A stretch of DNA of 64,000 nt from Myxococcota bacterium (GCA_963674735.2 CAXXQS010000002.1:1056001-1120000); one strand, 5' to 3'; positions 35,773-55,475 are shown, counted from the stretch's first letter. Numbers and translations: made by a program. Notes: a model not told the origin generated them from the sequence alone.

Positions 35773-35789
35773 TTGGCACCGTTTTTGCT
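35773..35789 (+). promoter_or_regulatory. Sigma54 -24/-12 promoter candidate
   Basis: TTGGCACCGTTTTTGCT = GG-N10-GC with near-consensus flanks. Confidence 0.6.
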
Positions 35790-38002: not shown

Positions 38003-38227
38003 TCACGGCTTCTGAAGCAAGCGTTTCACATCTTCTCGGATGATCCGCAAATCCTCGCGAATGTCACTCATCTGGCGGCATAAATCGGATTGCAGATCGG
38101 CGACGCGCACGTCGGTATAAAGTTGCATATCTCGGTAAAGTCCGAAACCGGCGGCCGTGAGGCTCATCATCAGTGTAACGGCGATCCAGATCCACCCGCG
38201 CCACTCAGCCAGCTCTTTTAAAGTCAT
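38003..38227 (-). CDS. Small single-TM coiled-coil protein, possible holin-like
   Basis: One hydrophobic helix then an amphipathic tail; last gene of the cluster; function inferred from position only. Confidence 0.4.
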   Translation of the reverse strand: MTLKELAEWRGWIWIAVTLMMSLTAAGFGLYRDMQLYTDVRVADLQSDLCRQMSDIREDLRIIREDVKRLLQKP

Positions 38228-38262
38228 CGCGCTTCCTTTCGCGTCGAAGGCCATGGGCATCA

Positions 38263-38985
38263 CTAAACGCTACTGATAGCCAGGCAGGGACCGGTCAACT
38301 CGCCATCTTGAATTTCGATAACCGTCTCCGGCGGTGCCCACAAACGCAATCCCCAATACCAAGGCGTTGACGGCAGAGCGCCACGGATATAAGGGACTTC
38401 TTGCAGACCCATCACAAGCTCCACCACCGTCCACGTGGGTTGGTCCACCCATTGATCGGTTCCACGCCCGATCATATGTGCGCCTTCGGCATCGGCATAC
38501 ACCGCCGCATAAAGCCGCGCGGGGTCGGATCCCGCCGTTTGGCGCACCTGCACGCGCGTGCGTAAAAACACGGCATAATCATGTGGGACGAAAGGCTGTG
38601 CAATCGCTTTGCGCCAGTTCCATCCGGCATCCGCTTCAATGGCGGTACCCGTATGGAAGTCGTTGACCACCGCCGGAACCGGCACGTCTTTTCCGTCCCC
38701 CGCGACAATGATCGGCGAACCGAAGTCGGGAGCGCTTTGGAATACACCCCGATTCTGGTTGACGATCACCGGAAGCCTTCTCCCGCGCCCCTTACCGGTG
38801 TGGTCGAACTGGCAGCGATTGGTTCGCATATTCGCGCCGGGAACCGGGCGGGCCATGTACCCTTCATAGAGCCAGGCACCATTTCCAACGAAGGCCTGGG
38901 CCAGATCGGCCGTAACGGCTTTGCCGTTTTTCAACGTCTCTTCGGGTAAGCTGCGAAAGGCGGGAGGAACGATCATCTGCGACAT
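38263..38985 (-). CDS. Putative tail fibre/tip-associated protein
   Basis: AAGGAGG RBS; position after hub; N-terminus similar to the two upstream ORFs. Confidence 0.5.
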   Translation of the reverse strand: MSQMIVPPAFRSLPEETLKNGKAVTADLAQAFVGNGAWLYEGYMARPVPGANMRTNRCQFDHTGKGRGRRLPVIVNQNRGVFQSAPDFGSPIIVAGDGKDVPVPAVVNDFHTGTAIEADAGWNWRKAIAQPFVPHDYAVFLRTRVQVRQTAGSDPARLYAAVYADAEGAHMIGRGTDQWVDQPTWTVVELVMGLQEVPYIRGALPSTPWYWGLRLWAPPETVIEIQDGELTGPCLAISSV

Positions 38986-38997
38986 TCTGTGCCTCCT

Positions 38998-39981
38998 TTA
39001 CAGATGTGAGAAATAGGCGATGGTTACCGGTCGCGGTGTTTTCTTTTCACGTTTGAACCACAAACAGGCATCCTCCGGCCCCAAGGTAACCGGCAACAGC
39101 TGCAACAGATCGCCATTGAAAGTCAGATCGACCTTGAAAGAGTGAACGCCTTCCTCGAACGTGCGCAGGTCCAGGCTCAATGCATACCAGATCGGCTGCC
39201 GACTCCCGGTGGGATAGAGTGTTTGCCAATCACCGTTGAGATCGCCACTCGAAAGCCGTATTTTAAAGGCCCAAACCGCATCGTTGTCGGTGGGTAAGGA
39301 TAGCAGTCGCTCTCCGTCCGCCATGGAAGCAGACAAACTGCAGGCGGCGGGAATCAGTAATGTGAGACGGCGCGCCCAAGCGGGAACGAAAAGGTTTAGT
39401 GCTTTTTCGCCACGGACGCCGTACGCCCGCACAACCGTTCCACCGCCCGGAACGAGCGGCAGCGGATCCCAGAGGCTGACCATCGTAGCCTCGACATCCG
39501 AATTGTAACACGCATTTTTATAGAGAAAACGTCCGTTGATGGCCGTATCGTTAAGCGTAAGATACTGGCCATCCTGAAAATAGGCGGCGACGTTGCCGTC
39601 AAGCCATAAACGATAGCGACTATCGGTGAGAGAGCCGTTCACCACCGGATGAGGAGCCACACCGACCTGCAAATAAATGCTGGTATCGCTACTGGAAAAG
39701 AAACGTGAGAACGGCACGGCGTTGGCAGCGCCGTTGACGAAATGCCGCGCCGGTTGACCGGCAATCTGGGCCGTCCACAGCGGAATGGTCGGGCCTCCAT
39801 GCGCACCGTGATCGTGGCTCACGACCGCATTCGCGCCACCCGGCAGATCGTCTCCCGTGGCGAGCTTGAAAAGGTAGTTCAAATTTTCGGCCGCCGCGCT
39901 GAAATCCTGCGCTAAAATCGGCCGGTCGGTTTGCAAGGCCAACGGATCGACCGTATTGAAGGTATGGTCATGAATCGTCAT
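38998..39981 (-). CDS. Putative tail fibre/tip-associated protein
   Basis: HDHG motif; beta-rich; ATGA coupling to the upstream ORF. Confidence 0.5.
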   Translation of the reverse strand: MTIHDHTFNTVDPLALQTDRPILAQDFSAAAENLNYLFKLATGDDLPGGANAVVSHDHGAHGGPTIPLWTAQIAGQPARHFVNGAANAVPFSRFFSSSDTSIYLQVGVAPHPVVNGSLTDSRYRLWLDGNVAAYFQDGQYLTLNDTAINGRFLYKNACYNSDVEATMVSLWDPLPLVPGGGTVVRAYGVRGEKALNLFVPAWARRLTLLIPAACSLSASMADGERLLSLPTDNDAVWAFKIRLSSGDLNGDWQTLYPTGSRQPIWYALSLDLRTFEEGVHSFKVDLTFNGDLLQLLPVTLGPEDACLWFKREKKTPRPVTIAYFSHL

Positions 39982-40691
39982 ACTGTTTCTCCGATCAATA
40001 AACCCGAGCCATCAAGCACGTGGCCCGAAACCGGTTTGAAAACCGATTCGGCGTCCGCGATCTGTGCGACCTGCCCTGCCGTGTCGCTGCGCAACCACAA
40101 TTTGAGTGAACACCAGCCGCTGAAGGCCGCCAGATTGGCGATGGGCAGGTTGAAAGTCACCGCCGTCCAGCCGGTAGCGGACGTGCTTTGCTCATCCGCA
40201 ACCAATTCCGCTCCGTCGCGCCACACCGAGAGACGAGCAATCGCCGACGCTCCCCCTTCCGCTTTCAGAAGGACCGGGAATACGAGTTCGGTGTATTGGC
40301 GGTCGAGATAAATTTCCTGAATAGCGCGCGCCAGCTTCAAGCCCGCCGATTCTTCGCCCGTCGCACCGGGTCCACCCGTGTTGGCCATCTCCCACAACAC
40401 GGGCATATAAGAGATGCTCGACGAGGACTGAGCATAGAGATGGCCCAAACGAAAGCTGCCGTGACGAGAGAGATACACGCCATCCAGGGCGTCACGCCCA
40501 TGGGCGTGACCGGATTGCGTCGCCGTAGCGTTTCCCGAAACCGGCCGATCCGTAAGATGTTCGTAAAAAGCGGCCCCGGTTTGGGCGAACCAATACGCCA
40601 CATCGGCGCTGAGGGGCGCATTGTCAGCCACTTCCTCGGTGTGCATTCCGCGCAGCGTATCGCATGGCGCACACAAAATCGGATTGCTCAT
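39978..40691 (-). CDS. Putative tail fibre/tip-associated protein
   Basis: GHAHG motif; position directly after the large tail protein. Confidence 0.5.
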   Translation of the reverse strand: MSNPILCAPCDTLRGMHTEEVADNAPLSADVAYWFAQTGAAFYEHLTDRPVSGNATATQSGHAHGRDALDGVYLSRHGSFRLGHLYAQSSSSISYMPVLWEMANTGGPGATGEESAGLKLARAIQEIYLDRQYTELVFPVLLKAEGGASAIARLSVWRDGAELVADEQSTSATGWTAVTFNLPIANLAAFSGWCSLKLWLRSDTAGQVAQIADAESVFKPVSGHVLDGSGLLIGETV

Positions 40692-40722
40692 GTTCTATCC
40701 TGTTTTGATCGGTTGAAAGGTA

Positions 40723-43700
40723 TTAGAAAGCGAATTCATAAGCCGGTTCGGTGGTGTCGAGCCGGGCATTCGTATCCGCAAGGTAAACAAACGCCGCCAA
40801 TCGACTCAAAGCGGGATCGTGATCGCCATAAGCGGCCGGAATCAGAATATCGCCCGGTTGTGGCAATAGGGTCGGAAGCACATCCAAGCTGAGCGTAAAG
40901 CACCCGGTTGTCTCCCAAGCAGCCACGTCAACTCCCCCGGGCACAATCACCAATTGCTCGGAAACGACCCAGCTTCCGGCCGCCAATGAAGGCGCGTATT
41001 TGATACGCAGTTGTTCGTTCGCCGCATAAACCTGTTCAGGATGGAGATCGCTCGGCCAATAGCGATCAGCCGTTAGCGTAAGTGTACGGCTGGCGGTTTC
41101 CCACCCGATGATTTCGGCGGCCGGAGCGAAACCGCCATAGCGCCCTTGACCGCGCTCCAACGCTCCCAGGCGTACTCGTTCTCCCTCCAAGTCGCGTTCG
41201 ATTTCCACCACGTCGTACATGCATTTTTCAATGCCCCGGTCCCCCGCACCGCCACATACCAAAGGACTGCTCAACTCGATACGTGACAACAACTCCAGAC
41301 CTTCCGCCACCGAAGGCAACAAGATCAAATCGGTTTGCGTCAAAAAGCGATTGTAGCGGCGCAGAAATCCCCAAGCCATATTGTACAGCCAGCTTTCACC
41401 GGCGGCATCCGCCGTCAGCCGCCCGCTCCGTAAGGCGCGAGATTCCAAGGTGAGGGTATGATCGTGAGCGCTCCCGATAGGCAAACCGGTCTCATCGCTG
41501 ACAATAACGCATGTATCGAATCGCTCGTCCACCGGACTGTAGTCGAGTGTGGCTTCCACCCGATCGATACGCAAATCCTCGCGCCAGGTCAGGTGCGGCG
41601 GATCAAGCAGCACGGTATGATCCACTTCCGCGTCGGAGGTTTCGTGGGCCAGCCGCGGACGAAAGCGGCCGAGTTTGAGGCGTCCGGTAGAATCACTGAC
41701 CAAATAGACACCGAGTGAGCGGCAGATATCGGCCGCGACATCGCGATAAATTTCATCGGGTAGGATCATGCGCCGAAACGAGTGGTCGTAGTTCACGCTT
41801 AAACCAGCCAAGGTGTCCGCAAAGCTGGCGGTGTCCACCAAGCCGGGAGGAAGACGAAGGCCGTGGCGCGACAAAGGCCGATCCGCATCGAGAAGATCCA
41901 GCAGGAATTCTTCCGGAGTGCTCGGAATGATCAACGGCTCCCCGTTGCCCGGATTGATGATTCGATCGGAGCACCACCATTCCTGTACGGTGCTCCCGGC
42001 CGCGTGCGAGACCGGACGCGTACCGTAAAGACCCCGCAGACAATCGACCAAGCACGGCCACTCGATCATTGAAACCGTCGCGCCGGGTGCGTGGACCGCC
42101 GCTTCGCTGCCCCAGGCTCCGCGATAACAATCGAGCAGCAGATTCGAATTCGCGGGGCGACTTCCATAAACAATCACCTCTTCCTCGATTTGAATCCATC
42201 CGCCGCTCTCGGGAAAACCGTCGGGAATCGCCAGGCGCAAAACGGTGCTATCCACTCCAACGGCAAAGGCCAAAACGGTTTCAGGGGCGGTGTCATCCAA
42301 TCCTTGAATCGAGGTATAAGCCACCAGCTCATCATCGATCGATACGAGTTGACCGGATTCGAAATAACGCAAATCGGGTTCCAGCGACGAAGGCGAAGCC
42401 AGGTAGATGCGAGTATTGTACGATCCGACACCACCCGCCAAGACGTGTTTAGCCGCCACTTCCACCCATGACAGTTCCAAGCCGGGCGAGCTGGTCGCAC
42501 CGGCCGGGTTCTGATAGATCTCCCCGGTTTCCCCTTCGAAACCAAGGGTGCCCAAGATGGAATCGTGGTCGCTCGAAACCGGTGCTTGATCGACCAACTG
42601 CAGCATATAATCGACCCGAAAACGCAGATGCAAACGCCCATCGGCGTCGATATCGAAATCGCCCGCCACTCCCGGCACAACCCTATCGATGGCCAATTTC
42701 AAGGCCGTGGCGAGATTGCGCGGATGTCCCAGCGATCGGGCATCGGCCAGATACGGTCCCGGAGCCAATCGTGCCGTGATCGTCTCCCACCCCAACGACG
42801 GATGAACGGAGCGACGCAGGTAGAGAGTGTCGTTGCCACGGCGGCCGGCTTGGGTTTTCTCGGCCTGGATCATGACCTGGTCGATCAGGCGGCCGCTTCC
42901 CATTTGCGTGCCCACCCGATTGTCCAGGTTCCCCAGCGGGTCGGTCAAACTCAGGCTGAATCCGGCCAGGTTGTCGGCGGCGGGTGACAAGCTGTCGATG
43001 ATCCCGGCAAACAACACCGGATCATCAGGCCGACGGGTGGAACCGGTGGGACGGCGCAGCCAGGCAAATCGACCGCGCCAGTAGGGATTGGCCGCCATGA
43101 CAGCTTCCCCGGCCAAGTGTTCGTTTGCGCGGGTACGGTGTGCACCACGGGTGATTCCCGTCAACAAGGCCGCTCCCGCTTTTGTTTCGTAAACGACCGC
43201 TTCCTGACCGATATAGGCTACACCGCTTTCGGGAAACCCATCCGCATTTTCCAAGACGATGACGGCATCATCCTTATCGATCGCAACGGTCAGGCTCGTG
43301 CGGGTTTCTTCGGCATGCCGAGGATTGAAAGCCGCCGTCAGATCGCCATCCAGATCGACCAGCCGAATGTCCATGCCACCCGAGACCGCCACTCCGGTCG
43401 CCATGTCGAGCGTTTGCGACAAGCTGGCCGGCAGACGCGACTGATCGATGTAAGCGGCCGGAATGACATTCATCCCGTTTAGATGCAGGCCTTCGATTTC
43501 GAGGTAGAACGGATCCTGGTCTTTCGCATCCAGACGAAACACCACCACCGCGTAATCGGGATCCACCGCCGCATGTGTCGTGCGCAGACGATAGGTTCCG
43601 GAAAGCGCGGTCAATCCGAAACACAGGCTTTCAACGACATCATCGATCAGGCTGGCGGTAATCGTGAGCAAACGTTCGTTTTGCGCAGCAGGAACGAAAC

Positions 43701-43839
43701 CGAGCAGACCCTCGTCACGTTCGAGGATCCAGGTGGCGGGGTCGAAAAGCGGATCGGGAACCGACTGAGGCGGACTCAAACACGCCGATATGCGATTCGG
43801 TCCGATCCGGTCTCCTAAACGTTGCAAGCGGATGGACAT
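40723..43839 (-). CDS. Large tail-tip/baseplate hub-like protein (~1038 aa)
   Basis: Largest tail gene; repeated RG..GT/S...H..G..V modules seen in phage tail proteins; start moved to ATG 43839. Confidence 0.65.
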   Translation of the reverse strand: MSIRLQRLGDRIGPNRISACLSPPQSVPDPLFDPATWILERDEGLLGFVPAAQNERLLTITASLIDDVVESLCFGLTALSGTYRLRTTHAAVDPDYAVVVFRLDAKDQDPFYLEIEGLHLNGMNVIPAAYIDQSRLPASLSQTLDMATGVAVSGGMDIRLVDLDGDLTAAFNPRHAEETRTSLTVAIDKDDAVIVLENADGFPESGVAYIGQEAVVYETKAGAALLTGITRGAHRTRANEHLAGEAVMAANPYWRGRFAWLRRPTGSTRRPDDPVLFAGIIDSLSPAADNLAGFSLSLTDPLGNLDNRVGTQMGSGRLIDQVMIQAEKTQAGRRGNDTLYLRRSVHPSLGWETITARLAPGPYLADARSLGHPRNLATALKLAIDRVVPGVAGDFDIDADGRLHLRFRVDYMLQLVDQAPVSSDHDSILGTLGFEGETGEIYQNPAGATSSPGLELSWVEVAAKHVLAGGVGSYNTRIYLASPSSLEPDLRYFESGQLVSIDDELVAYTSIQGLDDTAPETVLAFAVGVDSTVLRLAIPDGFPESGGWIQIEEEVIVYGSRPANSNLLLDCYRGAWGSEAAVHAPGATVSMIEWPCLVDCLRGLYGTRPVSHAAGSTVQEWWCSDRIINPGNGEPLIIPSTPEEFLLDLLDADRPLSRHGLRLPPGLVDTASFADTLAGLSVNYDHSFRRMILPDEIYRDVAADICRSLGVYLVSDSTGRLKLGRFRPRLAHETSDAEVDHTVLLDPPHLTWREDLRIDRVEATLDYSPVDERFDTCVIVSDETGLPIGSAHDHTLTLESRALRSGRLTADAAGESWLYNMAWGFLRRYNRFLTQTDLILLPSVAEGLELLSRIELSSPLVCGGAGDRGIEKCMYDVVEIERDLEGERVRLGALERGQGRYGGFAPAAEIIGWETASRTLTLTADRYWPSDLHPEQVYAANEQLRIKYAPSLAAGSWVVSEQLVIVPGGVDVAAWETTGCFTLSLDVLPTLLPQPGDILIPAAYGDHDPALSRLAAFVYLADTNARLDTTEPAYEFAF

Positions 43840-43852
43840 GATTTTTCTTCCT

Positions 43853-44569
43853 TCACTGTTGGTCGAACAGAAGATCGGCATCGTAGCGAGCGGGCCGAGG
43901 CGCCGGCCAGGTTCGGCTGGGAGACCATTCACTTTGGCCCGTGAGGTCGGGCCGCAAAACCGTCCAGCGCTGCCGCATGGGAGCCTCCAAGCACGCATCG
44001 AAAGCCGCGTCCCACAACAAAGGCGTCTCATTTTGCGCGGCGTCCAACCAGAGTTGCTTGAGCCGTTCGGTTTGCGCCACATCGAGCGCGGTGAACCGCA
44101 GCTGCCGCGGGTACCGTGTACTCAGGCTCCGCCCGTCCGTTCGGCCGCTCAACGACGTCGCCACCGCACTCGCAACAACGGTCGCCGGGCCACTGTCGTC
44201 CCGCAGGCCTTCGACAACAAAGCAGCCGGAAGGAGACAGTGGCGATGTCCAGGACGAACCGGGTGGCGAGTAGGTTTGTGCTTGAAAACCGAGCCAGGCG
44301 TGGCATCCCTCCTCGGGAAATTCGAGTTCGAACGGCAACGAATGGGAGAGCGTGACTCGACATCCGGCGGCATTGTCGGCACGCGACAAACGCAGCTCGA
44401 ACCCGGTGGGGGCCAGCGCCTCGGCGAGGGCCGCCAAAAACAGCGGCCAGGCATCGAACGACGCGACGGCAAGAGATACGGAAGTCCACTCGCTTTCGCC
44501 GTCGAACCGTCGGCGCAATATCGTACTAGGGCGCGCAAGCGTAATCGGGGTATACAAGGCTACCGGCAT
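43853..44569 (-). CDS. Putative distal tail protein
   Basis: ATG overlaps upstream stop; position between tape measure and hub; similar to 44569-45282. Confidence 0.5.
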   Translation of the reverse strand: MPVALYTPITLARPSTILRRRFDGESEWTSVSLAVASFDAWPLFLAALAEALAPTGFELRLSRADNAAGCRVTLSHSLPFELEFPEEGCHAWLGFQAQTYSPPGSSWTSPLSPSGCFVVEGLRDDSGPATVVASAVATSLSGRTDGRSLSTRYPRQLRFTALDVAQTERLKQLWLDAAQNETPLLWDAAFDACLEAPMRQRWTVLRPDLTGQSEWSPSRTWPAPRPARYDADLLFDQQ

Positions 44570-45282
44570 CAGTCCTCCAAAACAAACGTCAGGGTGGCGG
44601 TCCAATAAGGCGCGTATCGGCTTTTTCGTGTAAGCCAGCTGTGCTTCCCGGCCATCTGATCCGGGTCGAGGCGAGCGGATTCGTAATTCGACATGGCGTC
44701 GTAAAGACGCAGAGCACGGCCCTCCGCCGCCCGCTCGACCCAACGGCGCACATGGTCGGCTTCGCGCTGGGAAAGAAACGGAACCCGCAGCGTTCGACGG
44801 CGGGTGACGCCGCATAGAACCTGTTTCTTACGGCCATCCAGGCCGCATGCCGCCTCCGCCAATACGTGCAGCGCATCGACGTCCCGATTGACGGGTCGTT
44901 CGAACACCAGCACATTCAACGGCGTTCGCGCCGCTTGCTGCGATAAGGCAAGCGGGGGAGGATCGGTGCTCGTGAAGCCGAGTATTTCCAGCAGCGGACA
45001 CAGCCGCGCCTGTCCGTCGGCCGTCGACGGTATCCCATAGGTGAATGGGGTCGCAGCGGACAAAACCATACGGTGGTCGGAATCCAATCCGGCCGTGCCA
45101 CCCGGCAAGATGGCCGACATGGCCGTGGCCACGGCATCGGTCAAGGCATGAGCGTCGGCATACACGCCTGAAGGAATGACGAGTTCCACCTCTTCGGATG
45201 TCCCCCAGCACAGCCTCAGCACGCATTCGCTGTAGTTCACCCCGGTCGCCAACGTCAGTTCATGATGAAAAGCGCCCATCAA
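44569..45282 (-). CDS. Putative distal tail protein
   Basis: Directly after tape measure; ends in WTATLTFVLE beta strand. Confidence 0.5.
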   Translation of the reverse strand: MMGAFHHELTLATGVNYSECVLRLCWGTSEEVELVIPSGVYADAHALTDAVATAMSAILPGGTAGLDSDHRMVLSAATPFTYGIPSTADGQARLCPLLEILGFTSTDPPPLALSQQAARTPLNVLVFERPVNRDVDALHVLAEAACGLDGRKKQVLCGVTRRRTLRVPFLSQREADHVRRWVERAAEGRALRLYDAMSNYESARLDPDQMAGKHSWLTRKSRYAPYWTATLTFVLED

Positions 45283-46001
45283 ACTGCCTCCAACGCACGC
45301 CGCCGAATGCGGGGAGCCGTACGCCCGGCGTGGTCGTTAAGAGCCTTGGCGGTCAAGCGGGCCAACCCGCGCTCATCATAGAAGCCGCCTTCGAAATGGT
45401 AGTAGTACACCACCTGGCCCGCATCGCCATTCCCCTCGGCGGGCATGGGTGACAGGCTGCTCGACCCGGTTCCCGCGCCTCCACCCAACGGCAGCGATCC
45501 GGCCGTACCCGCTCCGGAGCCCAGCGAGCCGCCCGAGCTTTTCAGTTCGGATGCAAAGGCTTTCACCACCCCGCCCAATGCAATGAGCGCCAATCCGCCC
45601 GCGAACAGCGCCACCGGGTTTCCGGAAAAGAGCGCCGTCAACACCTGGGAGGCCGCCACCGCCACCGAACCGAGCATGACGGCAAACTGGCCCAGCAAAT
45701 CGAGAAAACCGGCGAAGAAGTTCTTTCCCGAAAATTCGGCTCCGCTGATCAGCGTGCCGACCATGAAACCGACCATTTCCGCCGTCTGCATCACCATGCG
45801 TTCCAGGGCACGCGTCATAACGGCGGTCGCCTGCTGCTGGGCACGGGTTTGCGCTTTGATGAGGGTTTGAATGTGGCGCGTGGTTTCGCTGTAGAGTTGC
45901 CGAACACGCTGATGGTAGCGCGACTCCTCGGCCAGTCTGCGGTTGGTCGATGGTGTCGCCGACACACTCACCTGTTTGTTGGTTTGATGGATGGTAAACA
46001 T
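45279..46001 (-). CDS. Short tape measure protein (240 aa)
   Basis: Follows chaperone pair; helical N-terminus, Ala/Gly-rich hydrophobic segments, C-terminal VVYYYHFEG strand. Confidence 0.6.
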   Translation of the reverse strand: MFTIHQTNKQVSVSATPSTNRRLAEESRYHQRVRQLYSETTRHIQTLIKAQTRAQQQATAVMTRALERMVMQTAEMVGFMVGTLISGAEFSGKNFFAGFLDLLGQFAVMLGSVAVAASQVLTALFSGNPVALFAGGLALIALGGVVKAFASELKSSGGSLGSGAGTAGSLPLGGGAGTGSSSLSPMPAEGNGDAGQVVYYYHFEGGFYDERGLARLTAKALNDHAGRTAPRIRRRALEAV

Positions 46002-46017
46002 CCTTTTCTCCTCTTGC

Positions 46018-46386: not shown

Positions 46387-46400
46387 ACGATAGGCGATGA

Positions 46401-46865: not shown

Positions 46866-46907
46866 GATCGCTCCTTATATTGGGGTTGTGTTTCCGAGTC
46901 GGGGGGA

Positions 46908-48152: not shown

Positions 48153-48178
48153 CGGTCCTCCTCTATAATGAGCCGCAC

Positions 48179-48634
48179 TTAAGCGGTGGGTTCGTCCACG
48201 ATCAACGTGAAACGATGATCGAACCGCAACCGTTCGTCATCCAACGGCAGCAGGCTGCTTTGTTCGTAGGCTAAAAAACGCGCGTTCGTTTCAGCCGAAC
48301 GGGCCTCGGCTTCGAACAGGTTCCGTATCTGCTTCGTTTCGGCGGCGAAGTAGGTATCCGCGAGTTCGGCACGATGACGCAAAGGATATAAAACCGCCAG
48401 TTCGAGAACGGCGGATTGGCTTGTCCAATCGAGTCCGGCCACATCCTCCGGGCCGATCTCGTTGAGGCGCAATGCGAAACGACGCCAGGCTTTTTCGTCA
48501 CGCTCGCGATCCAAATCGCGCCAGGCGGCGCGCCGATAGCGATCCGTGAACGGCGCCCGGTCGACATGCGCGAAGGGTGTAACCGATTCGAGCAAGGTCA
48601 CGAAGCGTTCGACTTGATTCGCGAGACGCGTCAT
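48179..48634 (-). CDS. Putative tail completion/terminator protein
   Basis: 151 aa, directly upstream of the tail tube; positional inference. Confidence 0.45.
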   Translation of the reverse strand: MTRLANQVERFVTLLESVTPFAHVDRAPFTDRYRRAAWRDLDRERDEKAWRRFALRLNEIGPEDVAGLDWTSQSAVLELAVLYPLRHRAELADTYFAAETKQIRNLFEAEARSAETNARFLAYEQSSLLPLDDERLRFDHRFTLIVDEPTA

Positions 48635-49335
48635 GGCGACAACCTCGCGCCGCTATGGTTGGCGCATACCTGGGTTTGAGAATATTGCGCATCCGGGCGC
48701 AGCCTCAGCGCGGCCAGGAAACGACTCAAGCTGCGGGCATAACGCCGCCGCCAGATGTGATATTTTTCCATCCGGTCGCCATCGCCATCGCCGGAGGCAC
48801 GCAGATACCACAAGCTTAGGGTCAAAAGCCGATGCAGGCGATCGAGCGCGGCCTTGTCCGCCACCCACCCCGGAGCCAATCCGCGTGCGCGCAACGCCAA
48901 ACGGATCTGTTCCTCCGCTTCGCCCATCACGCTTAAAACGACGCCCTCCCGTTCGGCGCGGTCGAAAGCAAGCGACGGTGCCAGGGCCGCCAGATCGGCA
49001 AGGGTGGAGGCGGGTCGCCAGGGATCGGCCACGAGGTCGACATACACCAGCCGATGGTGGGTATGACCGGCGTTGGTGAAGCTGATATCGAAACGGTAGT
49101 TGGCCGCCGCCTTCCAGATCCGGTCGTCTCGGGTATCGAGGTCGAGCTCGAATCGCAGGGCCGCCGCGTTCCAATTCATCGCCGCTTCGAAAAGCACCGG
49201 GTTCGACCCCGCGGGAGGAAAGACGTTCAGTAGCGCCGTCGGTGTTCCGTCGAGTTCATTCCCCGCAAGACCGGGGCGATAGTCGAAGCGTTCGGCCTCC
49301 ACACCCAGGCGACATTCATCGCTGTAATGAAGCAT
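48631..49335 (-). CDS. Putative head-tail adaptor
   Basis: Helical C-terminal half; neck position; inference. Confidence 0.45.
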   Translation of the reverse strand: MLHYSDECRLGVEAERFDYRPGLAGNELDGTPTALLNVFPPAGSNPVLFEAAMNWNAAALRFELDLDTRDDRIWKAAANYRFDISFTNAGHTHHRLVYVDLVADPWRPASTLADLAALAPSLAFDRAEREGVVLSVMGEAEEQIRLALRARGLAPGWVADKAALDRLHRLLTLSLWYLRASGDGDGDRMEKYHIWRRRYARSLSRFLAALRLRPDAQYSQTQVCANHSGARLSP

Positions 49336-49380
49336 ATCGAATTCCTTTCTTTCCGGCTTCGGGCCGGACCCGGTACGGAC

Positions 49381-49794
49381 TTACTCCACGAATTCGAGGG
49401 TCAAGCGGCTGGAGCAGTCCAGCATGTGAGACGATCCGGTCGGACCGGCCAGAATCATGAACGTACCGGGTTCGTTGGCCGTAACCTGTAAATCGAAGGC
49501 TCCGGCGCTGTCGGTGAGAACCACCAGGTCGCTCGTTTCATCGTTCACCATCACCATTCCTTGACCCAGTTCCGTATTCGTCAGAGTCGGACCCGGCGGA
49601 TTGCTGAAAACGTTGATGGCGACAACGTCCTCGAACGGGGCACCAGTCAGATCGGTGACTTGCAAACGTACGGTCTTAACCGCGTTCGTTACGGGTAGCG
49701 GCTCGGCCCAGGTAACCACGCCGAAGCGGTGAAGCAATTCCGGCGACAGGTCGGCGGGCGCAATTTTGTGGGGGGGATATTGTTGCAGATTCAT
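49381..49794 (-). CDS. Hypothetical virion protein (Ig-like beta sandwich)
   Basis: VRLQVTDLTGAP..LTDSAGAFDL pattern. Confidence 0.5.
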   Translation of the reverse strand: MNLQQYPPHKIAPADLSPELLHRFGVVTWAEPLPVTNAVKTVRLQVTDLTGAPFEDVVAINVFSNPPGPTLTNTELGQGMVMVNDETSDLVVLTDSAGAFDLQVTANEPGTFMILAGPTGSSHMLDCSSRLTLEFVE

Positions 49795-49797
49795 CGT

Positions 49798-50076
49798 CTA
49801 TCTCCAACTCAAAAGGGCCGCCACCGAACCGCCGTCGAGGTCACTGGCCACGGCGCGCAGTTCATGCCAGCCGAAATTGTCGAGGTTGAGTTCCCCGGAA
49901 ACGGTGAACGTCGCCAACGCGCGCCAGGAGCCATCGACCAAACGACCTTGGACTTGGCACGTGGCCGTTCCGGAGAGCGTCGCCACGACCAGCAGGCGGT
50001 CGAGGTGCGCCACGCCCACCGCATCACCGGTGGCGTCGACGGTGGTTTCGAGCAGGGTGTGGGTGTGATAACCCAT
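49798..50076 (-). CDS. Hypothetical virion protein (candidate capsid decoration)
   Basis: AAGGAGG RBS before ATG 50076; beta-rich. Confidence 0.5.
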   Translation of the reverse strand: MGYHTHTLLETTVDATGDAVGVAHLDRLLVVATLSGTATCQVQGRLVDGSWRALATFTVSGELNLDNFGWHELRAVASDLDGGSVAALLSWR

Positions 50077-50138
50077 TTTTTCCTCCTTAAGTGAAACGGC
50101 GGACCGAATCGAACTCCGGTCCGCCGTCCGGTTCGCGC

Positions 50139-50492
50139 CTAGATCGACAACACGACGCTGTAAGTGAAAACGGGCGTGTCGCCGCCCAGGGTGGAGCGAT
50201 AGCGATAGGTACGATAGGACTGAGGCCCAACCGGTACGAATTGCCGACCGCTCGCCGTCGCTTGCGCGAAACACGCCACTTCGGTCCAGCTTTCGCCGTC
50301 GTGGGATCCGTCGATCGCAACATCCAACGTGGGCGCATCGCCCGTCGCCGCCGAGACGGACAGCCATGCCAAGGACGCTTCGGGCAGGCTGCCGATATCG
50401 TTGGCGCTGCCGTTGGTACTCGTACTTTCGGCCGTTTCAGCTTTGAGAACGAGCCGTGCGTCGAAACGTTCACGGGTCCGGGGGTCGTTCAT
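50139..50492 (-). CDS. Hypothetical virion protein (candidate capsid decoration)
   Basis: AGGAGG RBS; PTLDVAIDGSHDGESW..YRYR jelly-roll-like pattern; follows the capsid gene. Confidence 0.55.
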   Translation of the reverse strand: MNDPRTRERFDARLVLKAETAESTSTNGSANDIGSLPEASLAWLSVSAATGDAPTLDVAIDGSHDGESWTEVACFAQATASGRQFVPVGPQSYRTYRYRSTLGGDTPVFTYSVVLSI

Positions 50493-50501
50493 GAACACCT
50501 C

Positions 50502-51413
50502 CTAGCTTTCGGATTTGGTCACGCCCATCAGACGGGCGGCCGATTTGGGATGCAGGATGACGAACGACGCCAGCCATTCGATGACGGTGAGATACTTCAG
50601 GTCGCTCTGCAACCCCATGTCGAGCACGTCCATCGGCTGGTTCTGGACGCCGCTGAGGTATTCATCCGCACCGAAGCGCAGGGCGTAGATCGATCCGGAC
50701 ACATCGCTTTCACCCATGTCTTCGTCGAAGCCCAGAATCGCGCCGCCCTGGTGGTCTTCTTCGATGATGCGGATCGGAACCCCGCCGTACGTGGCGATCT
50801 GGCGACCGAAGGCGTCTTGCCCGTAGGACACGCGCGCGTCGTCACGCAACAGCTTAGTGACTTCGCGGCGCATGGATTTGGACATCAGCAACATATCGGG
50901 CGCACCCGCCACCGCGTCGATCAGGTCGTCGAGCATGTCGGCGGTCAACGGCGCACCGTCGTCTCCGGCGCTCAACACCTGCGAGCCGGTCAGACGCGCG
51001 TTCAGGCCGTCGAACTGGCGCGGGTCGTCCCCCGAATCGCCGTCGAAAAACATCTTGGTGAAAAACAACGCCGCCGCTTTGGCTTTCAAGCGGTCGTGGA
51101 CGGCGCGAATTTCGCCCACCCCCTCGCCGCGTTCGCTCACCAGGGCGCGATCGACCTGGGATTTTCCGCCGAAGATTTTGGTGGTTTCCACGTTTTGCTG
51201 CAGAACGCCGGTCGACTCGGCGTAGTCCTCGTTGATGCCACGAAAGGCGATGCCGGGCAGGATTTCCTCCCGGTTGTACTTGAACACGCCGCCCGGGACA
51301 TTGATAAACGGCATGCTTTCGAGAATCGGCGACACCAGCGGAAACACCTCGATCACGTTTTTCTTGATCACATCGGTTTCCAGCTTGGCCGCTTCGAGCA
51401 GGGTCAGAGCCAT
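50502..51413 (-). CDS. Major capsid protein
   Basis: MALTLLEAAKL..SPILESMPF..FRGINE..FFDGD..FDGL..YGGVPI..SIYALRFG..AARLMGV; AAGGAGG RBS. Confidence 0.85.
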   Translation of the reverse strand: MALTLLEAAKLETDVIKKNVIEVFPLVSPILESMPFINVPGGVFKYNREEILPGIAFRGINEDYAESTGVLQQNVETTKIFGGKSQVDRALVSERGEGVGEIRAVHDRLKAKAAALFFTKMFFDGDSGDDPRQFDGLNARLTGSQVLSAGDDGAPLTADMLDDLIDAVAGAPDMLLMSKSMRREVTKLLRDDARVSYGQDAFGRQIATYGGVPIRIIEEDHQGGAILGFDEDMGESDVSGSIYALRFGADEYLSGVQNQPMDVLDMGLQSDLKYLTVIEWLASFVILHPKSAARLMGVTKSES

Positions 51414-51440
51414 GTTCGGTCCTCCTTGATTGCGGCGGCC

Positions 51441-51917
51441 TCAGCGGGCGCGATAGGCCCCGGCCGCCTGTTGTAAAGTCGTTTGCGGGTGGGTTCGACG
51501 ACCGGCCGCCACAAGCGGCGCAGTCGGTTTCGTTGCGACCTCGCCCTCCGGCAAGGCATTCGCAAACAGGTAGGCCCAGCGCGTCCGGGCGGTATCGATA
51601 AAGGTATCCAACACCGCGTCGTCCGTATCGGTTTCGGCCAATACGTCGCCGGATAGCGTGAGCAACGCATCGATGTCCACACAACCGGCATCACGCGCGG
51701 CCTCGGCCATTTTTTGACGAGCCTTCGTTTGGGCAAGGTCGCGCGTCAAACGGTCGGCGCGCGCCTCGCTGGCCTCGCGGGCGGCGGCGGCTCGGCGCAT
51801 ATCGGCTTTGAGGCGCTCCACGTACTGACGATCGTCCTCGGGCAGGCGGTTTTCCTCCATCATCGCAAGCCGGTCTTCCAGTTCCTGAATGTGCGCAAGG
51901 GCCTGATTCGGGTCCAT
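51441..51917 (-). CDS. Capsid scaffolding protein
   Basis: GGAGGAG RBS before ATG 51917; coiled coil; YLF motif; directly upstream of the capsid gene. Confidence 0.65.
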   Translation of the reverse strand: MDPNQALAHIQELEDRLAMMEENRLPEDDRQYVERLKADMRRAAAAREASEARADRLTRDLAQTKARQKMAEAARDAGCVDIDALLTLSGDVLAETDTDDAVLDTFIDTARTRWAYLFANALPEGEVATKPTAPLVAAGRRTHPQTTLQQAAGAYRAR

Positions 51918-51975
51918 GTTCTCCTCCAAGACGCATGGGATTGACCGCGCGGCCTCCGCCGACGCGGTATCTGCA

Positions 51976-52006
51976 TAAAGAAAAGGGGCGTCGCATCGGA
52001 CGCCCC
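51976..52006 (-). terminator. Intrinsic terminator between portal and scaffold genes
   Basis: Minus strand GGGGCGTC-CGATGC-GACGCCCC-TTTTCTTT. Confidence 0.65.
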
Positions 52007-52030
52007 AAGGGGTTCGAAAGCGGGTGACGT

Positions 52031-53482
52031 TTAACTTCCGCCGGTCGTTTCGGCACTCGTGCTCAAACGCAGGTTTTCGGTAACCCGGCGGCGGGCCTCC
52101 TCCGGCTCGATGCCGTAGCGGTCGACCAATTCGTCGGCGGCGGAGCGCAGCCCCAAGCCGATTTCGCGGGCGAGGTTTTTCAGTTCCTCCTCGCGTGAAA
52201 GCGGAATTACCTGCTGCGGAAAATCGACGCTTAGGCGACACGACTCCAACAGATCCGCGCCGGGGAATCCGGCCAGGCGCGCCAGCTGCCGCATCATGGG
52301 CCAGACGGCATCCTCTTCTACCGGGGTCAATTGGTCGATGAGGTCTTCGCGATACTCGATTTCCGGTTGCTTGTCGTGGAACTTGGCCGTGCCGGAAAGA
52401 AGCTCCACATCGAAGGTGAACGCCGATGGGGACAGATCGTTCATCTGGGCGAACAGCTTGAGCATGAACAGCAGGTTCTGGTTGCGCTCTTTTTCGCGCG
52501 GGTCCACCGCCAGGCTTTCCAGATGTTTCTCTTCGTCGTTCAAACAGATCACCGCCCCCGCTCCGGTCGCCGGATTGGCGGCGCCCAATTCCTCGGCACT
52601 GCCGTTGAAAACGTAGGCCGGGAAATCGGTCTGGCGCGAGTTGAGCGCCCCGCGCGTCAATTCGTGGTCGAGCCACTGAGCCATAAGTAGCAGCGATCGC
52701 GGGACATCCGGAAACAGTTCCGAGCCGAAGGTTTCGCCTTTGCGGAACAACACGAACGGATACTCGGGCAGTCCGGCATAGACGCCCAGTTCCGGCGGTT
52801 GTTCCGGCCAGGGGACGAAATCGGCGTCGAGCCGTTCGACCACCAGGCGTCTCGGTCCTTGAGCATCGGAGGTGAAACGATAGCGCACATAGCCGACCGC
52901 CTCGGCGGCGGACAACGGCGAATCGGCCGCCCCTCCTACCGGCACGGCGATGCTCACGGCATCGGCCAGCGAACCGGGATAATCGGGGTGCTGTTCCACC
53001 ACCAGTTGATGCGGCGGCAGCACGGTCAAGACGGGGACTCGGCGGCGGCCGTCGATTTGCCCCCACAGGACAGCCGCCCCCAGCAGTTCACGCGTGCGCA
53101 ACAGCCATTTCATGCGTGTATTGAGGCGCGTGGCGCGTACCAGATCGGCGAAGATGCGGTGCCCGCCGTGGTCGGGAGGTAAAGCGGCGGCCTCGGCGTC
53201 GAGCAACCAGCGGCGCGGGGGCCGCCGATAAAGCTTGGCCTTGGTGTCGACCACTTTGCGCACCACGTTGAGCGTCAACAGATTTTCGACCATCTGGTCG
53301 GCGTTGTTGGGATACAGCCGTCGCAAACGCTCCTTCAGCGTTTGTTCATACTCCCCGTTGTCGAAGTAGCGGTCCAACAGCGCTTCGCAACGCCCGGCCC
53401 AGGCCGTGTGAACGGCGCGGCGCGCGCGACGCTGCCCTTCCGCCCAAGCGGCGGCGCTTTGACCGATGAAAATGGGGTCCAT
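52031..53482 (-). CDS. Portal protein (SPP1 gp6-like)
   Basis: LNVVRKVVDTKAKLY..PPRR, PFVLF, SGTA; 483 aa directly after the terminase. Confidence 0.75.
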   Translation of the reverse strand: MDPIFIGQSAAAWAEGQRRARRAVHTAWAGRCEALLDRYFDNGEYEQTLKERLRRLYPNNADQMVENLLTLNVVRKVVDTKAKLYRRPPRRWLLDAEAAALPPDHGGHRIFADLVRATRLNTRMKWLLRTRELLGAAVLWGQIDGRRRVPVLTVLPPHQLVVEQHPDYPGSLADAVSIAVPVGGAADSPLSAAEAVGYVRYRFTSDAQGPRRLVVERLDADFVPWPEQPPELGVYAGLPEYPFVLFRKGETFGSELFPDVPRSLLLMAQWLDHELTRGALNSRQTDFPAYVFNGSAEELGAANPATGAGAVICLNDEEKHLESLAVDPREKERNQNLLFMLKLFAQMNDLSPSAFTFDVELLSGTAKFHDKQPEIEYREDLIDQLTPVEEDAVWPMMRQLARLAGFPGADLLESCRLSVDFPQQVIPLSREEELKNLAREIGLGLRSAADELVDRYGIEPEEARRRVTENLRLSTSAETTGGS

Positions 53483-53491
53483 GGAACCTCC

Positions 53492-54817
53492 TTAGCGATA
53501 GGACACGACGCCGAGTTTTTCCCGCTTGAAGGGGTATTCGTCGCCGATGAAATAATCGAGCGCGTCGCCGGGATGGTCGATGACGAAACGCGGGTCTTTG
53601 GGATCGCGCACCTTTTCTTTCTCGAAGCGGCCGGGCACGAACTTGGTGTGCTCCAGACTGCGAATCAGGTAACGACAGTGGGGCGCGACGAACAGCCGTT
53701 TCTTTCCCGCACTGTTTTGCAGGCGAAAATTGACGGCATTGGTGCGTTCGCGCACCAGCGGATTGGAGCGACGCCGTTTGATGGACAGCTTCACCCCCGG
53801 CAGCGTTTTCAGCCGCTCGCGGATGATGGCGTAGTCGCTGCGTCCGCCGCGATGGTCGCGCGCGTGGCCCGAGGCGTCGCCGTGCACCACAATGCTGGCG
53901 CGTTGCCCGGCGAAACGTTCGAGAATCGCCACACACAGGGCATCGGTGTCGCTGCCGTGACGGATGACCACTTCATCCACGACCCAGGTCACATCGTCGG
54001 GTCGTTTTTGAATGGCCAGCGCCACCATGAAATCCACATTGAAATCGAAGCTCAAATGCAAGCTGCGATCGGGATCGTACTGCACCTGCTTGTCCACATG
54101 CTGGGCGCGGTCGAAATTGCGATACACCCGGCCCTCGGCCCCGCCGCCGGTTTCGCCCTCGACGAAAATCCGGTAGTACTCATCGTCCACCGTCTGGCGA
54201 ATCAAGTCCACGTAGTCGGGCTTGTGCGCCATCAGAAACCGATTTTCGGTGGTCGGGGCGCGAATGTAGCGCCAATTGGCACGCGCAGTCTCGGGCGCAA
54301 TGAAGGCCTTGTGCAGGTAACCGTAACTTTCCTCCGGGTTCGACGTGATGAACAGCCGATAGCGGCGCGCCAGACCGGGAGGCGATTGGAAACGGTTGTA
54401 GCGCAAACGCGCCAAAAGCGCCCGGAATACGCGTTCCGACACCTGCGAGCCTTCCTCCACGTGAATCCAGCTGAACTCCATCGAGGCCAGCCGTTCGGGA
54501 CTCGACAGGTGGCGAAACCATACCTGCGAACCGTTGCGCAAAACCAGGTTGTCGGGATCGGCGGTCCAACGCGCGATATCGCGACGTGGAACGATTTCGG
54601 CCCAGCGAGCACGGGTCGTATCGCGCAACAGGGTATGCGTGGCCGCTCCCACCAACCCACGACTGCCGGGATAAAGCGTCGCAAGCGTATACCCCAAGAG
54701 CACCCCGGCAGTGGTTTTTCCCGAGCCGACGCCGCCCTGGTACAAAGCCAGGTCGGTAGGCTCGTCGTGCGGGACTTCGAACAGCTCACGTTGCGTGGGC
54801 AGCAGTTCAAAACGCAT
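53492..54817 (-). CDS. Terminase large subunit
   Basis: Q motif, Walker A GGVGSGKT, Walker B WIHVEE, TSNP, nuclease DFN..DE..GDASG..HPGDALDY. Confidence 0.92.
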   Translation of the reverse strand: MRFELLPTQRELFEVPHDEPTDLALYQGGVGSGKTTAGVLLGYTLATLYPGSRGLVGAATHTLLRDTTRARWAEIVPRRDIARWTADPDNLVLRNGSQVWFRHLSSPERLASMEFSWIHVEEGSQVSERVFRALLARLRYNRFQSPPGLARRYRLFITSNPEESYGYLHKAFIAPETARANWRYIRAPTTENRFLMAHKPDYVDLIRQTVDDEYYRIFVEGETGGGAEGRVYRNFDRAQHVDKQVQYDPDRSLHLSFDFNVDFMVALAIQKRPDDVTWVVDEVVIRHGSDTDALCVAILERFAGQRASIVVHGDASGHARDHRGGRSDYAIIRERLKTLPGVKLSIKRRRSNPLVRERTNAVNFRLQNSAGKKRLFVAPHCRYLIRSLEHTKFVPGRFEKEKVRDPKDPRFVIDHPGDALDYFIGDEYPFKREKLGVVSYR

Positions 54818-55256
54818 CGGCGTTTACCCCCTCGATACTCAGCGACAGCGGCGCGTCGGTTTCGTCGAGCGGCAACAGCCCCGCGAGTCCGGCATGGGCG
54901 GTTTTAAGTACCCCGGCGGCGGCGGCCAGATTTTTCAGGTCATCCTGCGCTTCCAGTCCGCCGCTCACGCATTCGCCCAGTCGCAAGGACAATTCCCACC
55001 ACATCGACAACAGCGCGGTGCGGGCCACCGGCGCGTCCGGCAGCGAGCGGTGTCCGAGACGCAACCGGCGTCGGCGCATCTCCCAGCCTTGCGCCACACG
55101 GCGCAACGCGACCGGGTTCATTCCGTGGCGTTTGGCGAAGGTCGCCAGCGAGGGACAGCTCGAACGCATGAAGCGCAATTCCAGTTTATCGCGTTCGGCC
55201 TGGGTGGTCGGCAAAGCGAAACGCGTCCTCGACGATCGATCGGATGAATTCGACAT
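54807..55256 (-). CDS. Terminase small subunit candidate
   Basis: Overlaps terL start; HTH-like SLATFAKRHGMNPVALRRVAQGW; AGGAG RBS before ATG 55256. Confidence 0.6.
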   Translation of the reverse strand: MSNSSDRSSRTRFALPTTQAERDKLELRFMRSSCPSLATFAKRHGMNPVALRRVAQGWEMRRRRLRLGHRSLPDAPVARTALLSMWWELSLRLGECVSGGLEAQDDLKNLAAAAGVLKTAHAGLAGLLPLDETDAPLSLSIEGVNADAF

Positions 55257-55271
55257 GGGGTCTCCTGCATG

Positions 55272-55300
55272 AAAAAACCCGGCCGAATCGGTCGGCCGGG
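55272..55300 (-). terminator. Intrinsic terminator 15 nt upstream of the first cluster gene
   Basis: Minus strand CCCGGCCGA-CCGAT-TCGGCCGGG-TTTTTT. Confidence 0.75.
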
Positions 55301-55356
55301 CTTTAAGCGCACGTGGGCTTGACTCGAATTCAAACACAATCTTCCCCCCTTTTCAA

Positions 55357-55432
55357 GGAGCGTTTCGGAGCATCGTAGAGCTTGCGGGAACCCGCAGGAG
55401 CGTGGGGGAGCGCCAAGGAGCGCAACGGAGCG
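55357..55432. repeat. Eight 10-bp-phased GGAGC motifs
   Basis: GGAGC at 55357, 55367, 55397, 55407, 55417, 55427; variants AGAGC at 55377 and GGAAC at 55387. Confidence 0.85.
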
Positions 55433-55475
55433 GAGAGGCTTGATATAAGGGAAAGGAACGGCGGAAGGAGGTGGC

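Follow-up and report, generated by a model that had tools for sequence, protein, structure and literature searches.

Gene content and boundaries of the cluster

The window analysed here is a 64,000-nucleotide stretch from a Myxococcota bacterium (GCA_963674735.2, CAXXQS010000002.1:1056001-1120000). Its minus strand carries a cluster of 21 collinear, tightly packed open reading frames (ORFs), which we regard as a candidate gene transfer agent (GTA) locus. The cluster spans positions 38003-55337, or 38003-55256 if its first gene, terS, starts at an ATG, and each of its ORFs either encodes a structural or packaging protein or is an unknown standing in a structural position. Overlaps of 1-11 nt occur at six of the 20 gene junctions, and the largest intergenic gap, 3′ of the portal gene, is 167 nt. 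The features are listed below from terS onwards, with protein lengths in amino acids (aa). Handles beginning with G denote genomes (G000 being that of the window) and those beginning with L denote loci or contigs.

54807-55256, minus strand: terS candidate, 149 aa from the ATG; named from position, size and an 11-nt overlap with terL
53492-54817, minus strand: TerL, 441 aa; PF04466 (2.8e-13), phrog_2 (1.3e-34)
52031-53482, minus strand: portal protein, 483 aa; 30 of 30 named ESM-Atlas matches were SPP1_portal-type clusters, score 0.98
51985-52006, minus strand: terminator-like hairpin 3′ of the portal gene; counterpart in only 2 of 7 clusters examined (G000, G006)
51441-51863, minus strand: scaffolding protein, 140 aa; PF06810 at 24.1 bits, under the 35-bit cut-off
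50502-51413, minus strand: major capsid protein, 303 aa; phrog_212 (5.5e-66), PF20911 (8.6e-10)
50139-50498, minus strand: head-associated protein, 119 aa; phrog_9522, C-terminal part (1.5e-9); conserved in G003, G004, L163 and L165
49798-50076, minus strand: conserved small protein, 92 aa; orthologues in G003, G004, G002 and G009; no family match
49381-49794, minus strand: 137-aa gene of a variable cassette; no orthologue in any relative
48631-49335, minus strand: protein in head-completion/connector position, 234 aa; conserved in all relatives; role from position, no family match
48179-48634, minus strand: protein in connector/terminator position, 151 aa; conserved; role from position, no family match
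46908-48152, minus strand: major tail tube protein, 414 aa; phrog_290 (1.4e-11)
46401-46865, minus strand: gene in tail-assembly chaperone position, 154 aa, between tube and tape measure; 152-154 aa in five orthologues; no family match
46018-46386, minus strand: second chaperone-position gene, 122 aa; named by position; conserved; no family match
45279-46001, minus strand: tape-measure candidate, 240 aa; named solely from position and Gly/Ala-rich hydrophobic central segments; no family match
44569-45282, minus strand: distal-tail candidate, 237 aa, from position; Atlas leads of 0.81 at most, tube-fold families among them; no family
43853-44569, minus strand: distal-tail or tail-tip candidate, 238 aa; AlphaFold2 (AF2) model with a predicted local distance difference test score (pLDDT) of 73 and a predicted template modelling score (pTM) of 0.71; no family
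40723-43839, minus strand: central tail-tip/hub protein, 1038 aa; two domain copies of about 60 aa match tail, baseplate and fibre PHROGs (1.3e-10 and weaker)
39978-40691, minus strand: fibre-position protein, 237 aa; conserved in G003, G004, G006 and G009; no family match
38998-39981, minus strand: fibre-position protein, 327 aa; conserved; no family match
38263-38985, minus strand: fibre-position protein, 240 aa; conserved, deletion copy L163 included; no family match
38003-38263, minus strand: protein of 86 aa, with a single hydrophobic segment and a helical, charged tail; G003, G004 and G006 have orthologues of 80-91 aa; no family

Host genes closely adjoin both ends. The plsC gene (PF01553) stops at 55476, and the terS ATG at 55256, preceded by an AGGAG ribosome-binding site (RBS), lies 219 nt downstream; this ATG is probably the true start, rather than the GTG at 55337. 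On the far side, 6 bp separate the end of the last cluster gene (38003) from a 563-aa CarboxypepD_reg gene, which is convergent with it and stops at 37996. Searches of the 21 proteins against Pfam and PHROGs gave no match to prohead protease, integrase, repressor, replication or lysin families. There were no tRNA genes in the 64-kb window, and no bracketing direct repeats among the 20 largest repeat families. In the 5.26-Mb genome, the nearest PF00589 tyrosine recombinase was more than 400 kb from the cluster, and no other TerL_ATPase, Terminase_6N or Phage_capsid (PF05065) matches were found; PF05065 did match control genomes.

A first-pass annotation of the window had described a virion-only run of 17 kb, and the head and short non-contractile tail encoded by the 21 ORFs bear this out. 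Its statements that integrase, repressor, replication and endolysin genes and att-like repeats are missing held in the searches above, as did its view of a scaffold-type head, distinct from that of RcGTA, in a Myxococcota-like host. The tight boundaries that it gave were also found; the stretch between plsC and terS, which it had counted as leaving no room for further modules, turned out to hold a structured leader (see below).

Assignment of head and tail proteins

Orthologues of the terS candidate were found in G003, G004, L162 and L163. It matched no family, and its model matched no fold in Foldseek (best E = 1.6; none at E ≤ 0.001). The AF2 model, at a mean pLDDT of 62, has an N-terminal domain of short helices followed by two long helices; residues 11-60 (pLDDT 71-87) form four short helices with a helix-turn-helix (HTH)-like look. 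The portal had no Pfam match, and two of its four orthologues matched phrog_533 weakly. For the scaffold, the G002 orthologue scored 52.6 bits against PF06810, over the 35-bit cut-off.

The slot between the 92- and 234-aa genes, occupied in the window by the 137-aa gene, held two unrelated genes in G003 (142 and 390 aa), two of 189 and ~480-558 aa in G004, a 769-aa gene in G006 and none in L163; coordinates of the slot outside the window are L144:5845-7455 and L145:11347-13378. The small cassette genes of G003 and G004 have a C-terminal motif in common.

The 414-aa protein had been considered as a neck protein. This was rejected, as the phrog_290 match and the Phage_tube_2 homologues identify it as the tail tube: only four homologues occur in a collection of 5.8 billion proteins, and two of the four (P0002, P0004) pass the PF18906 (Phage_tube_2) cut-off. 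With the tube so placed, the 154- and 122-aa genes fall in the chaperone position and the 240-aa Gly/Ala-rich protein in that of the tape measure. Profile searches of PDB sequences with the tube, 154-aa, portal and hub families gave nothing below E = 0.15.

No Foldseek match at E ≤ 0.001 was obtained for the model of the 238-aa protein. In VIA-align, it aligned with tail-tip chains (T5 pb9, lambda gpM and an RcGTA virion chain) at Z 5.0-5.5, and its jelly-roll insert gave Z 8.6-10.6. The predicted fold thus offers a lead to a possible tail-tip protein. By eye, the three fibre-position proteins (38263-40691) have a common N-terminal motif, an aromatic/Leu stretch followed by an H-D/x-H-G-type segment, and in G006 the N-terminus of the 327-aa protein cross-matches the preceding gene; the three may be paralogues. 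A lysis or membrane role for the 86-aa protein is conjecture.

Distribution among related genomes

Among 61 related genomes (Myxococcota or Myxococcales metagenome-assembled genomes, MAGs; the window's own included), 11 had a TerL match and seven a capsid match. All capsid matches lay within the order of the window, as did those of TerL except for two weak ones (E = 7.5e-6 and 5.4e-4) in family f12. The cluster was collinear in six species-level genomes, again counting G000, from two families of one Myxococcota order, and on four metagenome contigs. The principal copies, and one genome of the same family, were as follows.

G003, another genus: 20 of 21 proteins, order kept; both flanks as in the window
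G004, another genus: 20 of 21 proteins; different site, between proC/acylphosphatase-side genes and a tetratricopeptide repeat (TPR) gene
G006 and G009, one genus of the second family: 12 of 21 proteins detectable in each; flanks are an aminotransferase gene and a major facilitator superfamily (MFS)-spermine-synthase gene
G002: 13 of 21 proteins; 20-kb contig ending at the hub
L162, metagenome: terS to scaffold; plsC-terS junction as in the window
L163, metagenome: all missing from midway through the tape measure to where the 327-aa gene ends; both flanks of the window locus
L165, metagenome: terL to hub; PBP1A and other host genes upstream
G001, same family, 94% complete: no TerL, capsid gene or remnant; plsC and CarboxypepD_reg genes near contig ends

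In G003, plsC lies on one side of the cluster, and genes for the CarboxypepD_reg protein, a 222-aa protein, an FHA-GAF sigma-54 activator, a 326-aa protein and a Ser/Thr kinase lie on the other. One insertion point at plsC, conserved leader included, was common to five lineages in all, G000, G003, L162 and L163 among them. Host genes stood at both ends of the cluster wherever flanks were visible (G000, G004, G006, L165). Between G006 and G009, gene order agreed across the cluster and on either side of it, with nucleotide identity of 70-76%. In G009 the TerL and capsid genes are frameshifted, as are two of the four flanking host genes compared; since host genes are struck as well, these frameshifts probably reflect assembly quality.

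Several further observations were made on these loci. In L163 (10090-10900), the tape-measure ORF breaks off after 187 aa. Next come ~250 bp of AT-rich remnant, which look like the 3′ end of the 327-aa gene, and then the 240-aa gene with the host flank beyond it; both distal-tail genes, the hub and two fibre-position genes have been lost. The host block at 31039-37996 of the window comprises genes for a Ser/Thr kinase with PEGA domains, a 326-aa protein, an FHA-GAF sigma-54 activator, a 222-aa protein and the 563-aa CarboxypepD_reg protein. It adjoins the cluster in G000, G003 and L163 and is unlinked to it in G004 and G006; no link between this block and control of the cluster was found. In G004, 6-13 kb past the tail end of the cluster (L060:3422-11854), there are 12 co-oriented small ORFs of 88-397 aa, which had no Pfam or PHROG match and are separated from the cluster by the TPR gene and a 440-aa gene on the opposite strand. 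Distant TerL genes (28-31% identity) occur in G007 (L031/L032) and G008 (L008), from two other families of the order, and G007 has a capsid gene at 29% identity. These are probably unrelated phage elements, as they are far more diverged than host Mfd (45-54%).

Selection, composition and phylogeny

Selection was examined on the closest pair, G006 and G009, where dS is at least 1 and near saturation, so that dN/dS values are rough. By the NG86 method, 12 cluster genes gave dN/dS of 0.046-0.302 and six host genes 0.030-0.208, with similar dS in both sets. Between genera, dS was saturated or undefined in cluster and host genes alike, which makes dN/dS unusable at that distance; dN was 0.13-1.04 in cluster genes and 0.18-0.69 in host genes. 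The cluster ORFs nevertheless stay open: despite saturated dS, this was so for 20 of 20 shared genes in G003 and 19 of 20 in G004. Gene lengths were nearly fixed over five orthologous clusters from two families, with 407-422 aa for the tube, 240, 245, 242, 240 and 253 aa for the tape measure, and 1018-1042 aa for the hub.

The guanine-plus-cytosine (GC) content of the cluster tracked that of the host, measured on host pieces of each genome, in six genomes over a range of 52-61% (cluster/host: G000, 0.606/0.590; G003, 0.588/0.598; G004, 0.541/0.535; G006, 0.564/0.561; G002, 0.521/0.521; G009, 0.534/0.499).

A tree of nine cluster genes, ((G006,G009),(G002,(G000,(G003,G004)))), was fully supported. 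The host tree, from Mfd and the sigma-54 activator, had the same deep groups and agreed with it at all supported nodes. The sole difference lay inside the trio G000, G003 and G004, where six host genes gave no resolution and did not reject the cluster's grouping (approximately unbiased test, p-AU 0.28). All tree alignments were anchored on window proteins. The host trees comprise two to six genes, four of them neighbours of the cluster, and leave the G000/G001/G003/G004 radiation unresolved.

Isolation from known phages

In a phage collection of 50,697 records, identity reached at most 46% for the capsid protein (201 records) and 28% for TerL (870 records), so that all were under 60%; identity among the relatives described above is 70-82% for the capsid protein. 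The nearest capsid proteins were those of the siphophages Bacillus PK2, Paenibacillus Unity and Halcyone, at 45-46% over 95% of the length. IMG/VR held no close TerL. Its capsid relatives were at 50% or less, and in the 80 loci kept, the only other gene in common was TerL, at 29% or less. Among 185,579 species genomes, 20 outside loci had a capsid relative (at most 55%), with a weak portal match in five of the 20 and the 119-aa gene in one; none of the 20 had a tail gene in common with the cluster. In these searches, no phage, IMG/VR contig or outside genome matched the cluster beyond the capsid protein, TerL and weak local matches to two other head-region genes.

A conserved leader upstream of terS

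The leader is ~180 nt long and lies between plsC and terS, with phased repeats, a promoter-like element, a hairpin and the terS RBS and ATG in that order.

55357-55437, minus strand: about eight phased 10-bp repeats, CGCTCC-type, abutting the −35-like hexamer; lag-10 autocorrelation 0.51 (0.0005 of shuffles)
55328-55356, minus strand: sigma-70-like promoter, TTGAAA, a 17-nt spacer with a conserved G-rich/TGTGT core, and TTGAAT; gapless alignment in six copies
55272-55304, minus strand: hairpin and T-run resembling an intrinsic terminator, with the terS RBS immediately downstream; folding energy −29.1 kcal/mol, z −4.1

This anatomy was kept in six copies from five lineages (G000, G003, G004, L162 and L163), including G004, where the upstream gene is divergent. 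The repeat letters differ by lineage, being CGCTCC-type in the window and ATGTA-type in L163, and the period is shared: the window's periodicity ranked first or second in each copy, and lag-10 or lag-20 was the top autocorrelation lag in six of six copies, with shuffle fractions of 0.0005, 0.21, 0.015, 0.0375, <0.0005 and <0.0005. The arrays were scored by autocorrelation; Tandem Repeats Finder caught just 2.6-2.8 units. From its sequence, the conserved −35/−10-like box would act as a promoter. A leader-profile search of the 5.26-Mb genome returned this promoter as its sole significant site (E = 1.1e-11; next, 0.13). Neither that profile nor a search for the 12-nt box with two mismatches found a second leader copy in the genome, and hence no regulon was drawn.

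The hairpin lies 35-45 nt past the promoter and has 9-13 pairs and a T-run, with stem sequences that differ by lineage. Four hairpins (G000, both copies of G003, and G004) were folded singly, as RNAalifold misaligned the leaders, and gave −21 to −29 kcal/mol with z of −2.3 to −4.1; those of L162 and L163 were read from sequence only, at the same place. The hairpin was missed by a built-in scan for terminators, and Rfam gave no family for the leader, with a single unrelated sub-threshold match (E = 0.57).

In G003 the leader unit is tandemly duplicated, at ~190 bp per copy (L024:8395-8790, upstream of terS), so transcripts from the first promoter would meet two terminators. G002 has a hairpin and T-run before terS. 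In genus g3 and L165, a different conserved upstream box (GCTTAGTTTG) follows GGCAG-type repeats (L028:14700-15445, L063:1700-2010, L165:8026-8310), which could represent an alternative form of the leader's regulatory arrangement. A sigma-54 promoter upstream of the G006 cluster, considered by eye, was dropped, its spacing being one base short.

A promoter, a close intrinsic terminator and a conserved element between −35 and −10, onto which the anti-termination factors load, are likewise found in the lambda PR′-tR′/Q and Pseudomonas AlpA systems. We know of no counterpart in those systems to the phased 10-bp repeat array. In the Caulobacter GTA, activation by GafY and IHF is combined with anti-termination by GafZ, through an element between −35 and −10, and an analogy to Q and AlpA is drawn there (PMC11150451). 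By this analogy, the leader suggests control by activation and anti-termination. Unlike in the Q and AlpA systems, neither Q nor a consistent AlpA family was present in the order: the Q family (PF03589) was found in none of 11 genomes, and AlpA (PF05930) in two of 11, neither following the occurrence of the cluster. From the conserved leader, factors acting in trans are to be expected, and the cluster itself has no lysin or regulator family. Three public runs contain the locus, all of them contig-only and from one study and none of them RNA; they yielded only one-piece contigs and short-sided spurious joints.

Comparison with known systems

RcGTA is encoded by a small head-tail cluster with a short tape measure, and its lysis and regulatory genes lie elsewhere. 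The present cluster resembles the Rhodobacter and Caulobacter GTAs (RcGTA and CcGTA) in being a head-tail-only cluster of ~15-17 kb with the same order from terS to the tail tip and a short tape measure, in its vertical inheritance within a host clade, and in that no lysin or regulator family was found in the cluster. There was, however, no detectable homology to RcGTA, only sub-threshold signals (Rcc01698_C, E = 0.046; RcGTA virion chain, Z 5.0). Whereas RcGTA has an HK97-type capsid protein (PF05065) and a prohead protease, here the type of capsid protein is PF20911/phrog_212, a scaffold stands in for the protease, and PF05065 was not found in the genome, which places the cluster outside the RcGTA family by homology. 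The terminator also differs in position, lying in the leader before terS and not after the first gene as in alphaproteobacterial GTA. Known GTA TerS proteins are said to have no specific DNA-binding domain (PMC11841831); judging from the AF2 model, the TerS here may, by contrast, keep an HTH-like domain.

Outside the Alphaproteobacteria, PMC12946183 describes FpGTA of Faecalibacterium, a 10.5-kb podovirus-like operon with experimental packaging evidence, and proposes FpGTA and PBSX of Bacillus subtilis as GTA-like from genomics and packaging patterns. The present cluster is like both in being an independently domesticated structural cluster conserved within a host group. It differs from FpGTA in its phylum and in its siphovirus-type tail with a tube protein. 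With PK2, Unity and Halcyone it has the phrog_212-type capsid in common; those are complete phages of 50-59 kb.

The gene content also bears on other classes of element. An intact temperate prophage does not fit, since no integrase, att repeats, immunity or replication modules adjoin the cluster. Phage satellites (phage-inducible chromosomal islands, PICIs, and capsid-forming PICIs) are set apart by the missing integrase and replication/primase module and by the full tail module, satellites having as a rule no tail genes, and a tailocin by the conserved TerL, portal, scaffold and capsid genes. Of the features by which GTAs are recognised, three were found: a locus restricted to virion and packaging genes, vertical conservation within a clade, and purifying selection. 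The behaviour that defines a GTA, uptake into particles of near-random host DNA in pieces too small for the whole locus and without favouring it, is proposed for the present cluster.

Interpretation of the cluster

As far as genes alone can tell, the comparative-genomic signature used for GTAs is present here. Long-term maintenance of the cluster by the host is well supported. Its virion-only content, the host genes at both ends and the insertion point shared by five lineages, together with its host-like composition, compatible phylogeny, purifying selection at saturated synonymous divergence and lack of close phage relatives, lead us to argue that these chromosomal genes have been retained by the host rather than by a phage, and from a time before the split of the two families. 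It is probable that the cluster represents a new GTA-like family without relation to RcGTA. That it is a host-maintained, GTA-like particle producer is the reading we favour, with some reserve.

The first-pass annotation had likewise proposed a host-domesticated particle producer and had named several comparisons that would bear on it. Relatives at the plsC locus, which it had proposed to look for, exist in four further lineages; not all relatives have the cluster there, as it lies at other sites in G004, G006/G009, G005 and L165 and was not found in G001. The cluster and host trees agree wherever nodes are supported, dN/dS in G006/G009 is in the range of host genes, and the collections searched contained no close relative inside complete phages. 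Domestication is upheld as regards conservation, collinearity and selection, and is qualified by the absence from G001 and the partial deletion in L163.

A number of observations weigh against a host-maintained GTA. All genomes are MAGs, the cluster was not found in a 94% complete genome of the same family (G001), and the L163 copy has lost the stretch from the tape-measure C-terminus through the 327-aa gene. At least five different chromosomal sites carry the cluster (plsC, one site in G004, one common to G006 and G009, a place near rplU in G005, and one adjacent to PBP1A in L165). The 240-aa gene is split into two frames in G004. The cassette between the 92- and 234-aa genes differs in every genus, and the N-terminal half of TerL in genus g3 does not align; from their sequences, both suggest exchange with phages. 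The TerS N-terminal domain of short helices, if modelled correctly, could bind DNA, and the particle might have room for its own 17 kb. The roughness of dN/dS in the closest pair and the small gene base of the host trees count on the same side.

These points bear differently on the three alternatives. A domesticated particle with a use other than transfer, such as a PBSX-like killer or a device for competition or predation in which packaging is incidental, would account for the conservation and selection equally well. An arms race at the cell surface would fit both the fast-changing cassette and the fibre-position genes, which are at 25-45% identity when the capsid protein is at 70-82%; PBSX itself is treated as GTA-like in PMC12946183. 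A killing device has no obvious need, however, for the full packaging motor that is kept here under purifying selection, and no toxin or lysin domain was found in the 21 proteins (Pfam, PHROGs). We consider such a particle unlikely, though the likeliest of the three alternatives. A decaying prophage remnant without present function would leave traces of the kind seen in the L163 deletion copy, the absence from G001, the split 240-aa gene of G004 and the TerL and capsid frameshifts of G009. Against this, the G009 frameshifts are likely to be assembly error, 20 of 20 (G003) and 19 of 20 (G004) genes are open at saturated dS with dN/dS of 0.05-0.30, and gene lengths are conserved over two families; decay is a very unlikely explanation.

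The several chromosomal contexts, the mosaic of TerL N-terminus and cassette, and an HTH-like TerS N-terminus that, on the model, might recognise a pac site would also suit the virion module of a still-mobile element, a satellite or split phage that enters repeatedly and draws on a helper or on distant functions. Yet the nearest recombinase is more than 400 kb off, bracketing repeats were not seen among the 20 largest repeat families, both ends run into host genes, one insertion point is shared by five lineages, GC content tracks the host and the tree is compatible with the host tree. Scans of phage, IMG/VR and plasmid-free genome collections gave no close relative, and the genome has no other head or terminase genes that could belong to a helper. 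This makes a mobile module highly improbable.

If the cluster is indeed a host-maintained GTA, its parts would act as follows. The packaging motor (TerS, TerL and portal) would serve a scaffold-assembled capsid with a short non-contractile tail, predicted to consist of the tube, the products of two chaperone-position genes in assembly, a 240-aa tape measure, tail-tip proteins and three fibre-position proteins. At about 0.15 nm per residue, the tape measure would give a tail of some 35-40 nm. The cluster alone would be unable to replicate, to integrate or, as far as is visible, to lyse the cell. Its expression would probably be gated by host factors encoded elsewhere and acting on the conserved leader, in which the phased repeats would bind a regulator, the sigma-70-like promoter with its conserved spacer would then be used, and the terminator would need read-through. 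Particles would be made, loaded with host DNA by headful packaging and delivered to kin. The more specific proposal, of a GTA that evolved independently in this Myxococcota order, from a siphovirus related to known phages solely by its capsid family and a distant TerL, and is controlled by a repeat-array regulator together with Q/GafZ-like anti-termination at the leader terminator, is tentative, and we hold it to be possible rather than probable.

Significance

Apart from Brachyspira and a handful of recent examples such as FpGTA, nearly all GTA clusters identified so far are, to our knowledge, alphaproteobacterial. A full-text search, outside of which subscription journals and supplementary files fall, returned no description of such an element in Myxococcota or Deltaproteobacteria. 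For other phyla, a 2026 paper states that GTA-like packaging has yet to be traced to its gene clusters (PMC12946183).

If the favoured reading is true, this would be the first GTA gene cluster identified in Myxococcota, and an independent GTA origin conserved across a Myxococcota order, with a regulatory logic convergent with that of the Caulobacter GTA. Traits on which GTAs may converge, namely small head-tail clusters, short tape measures and control by anti-termination, would then become testable. The 21 genes and the ~180-nt leader would provide concrete targets for the sequencing of particle DNA in the habitats from which the MAGs came.

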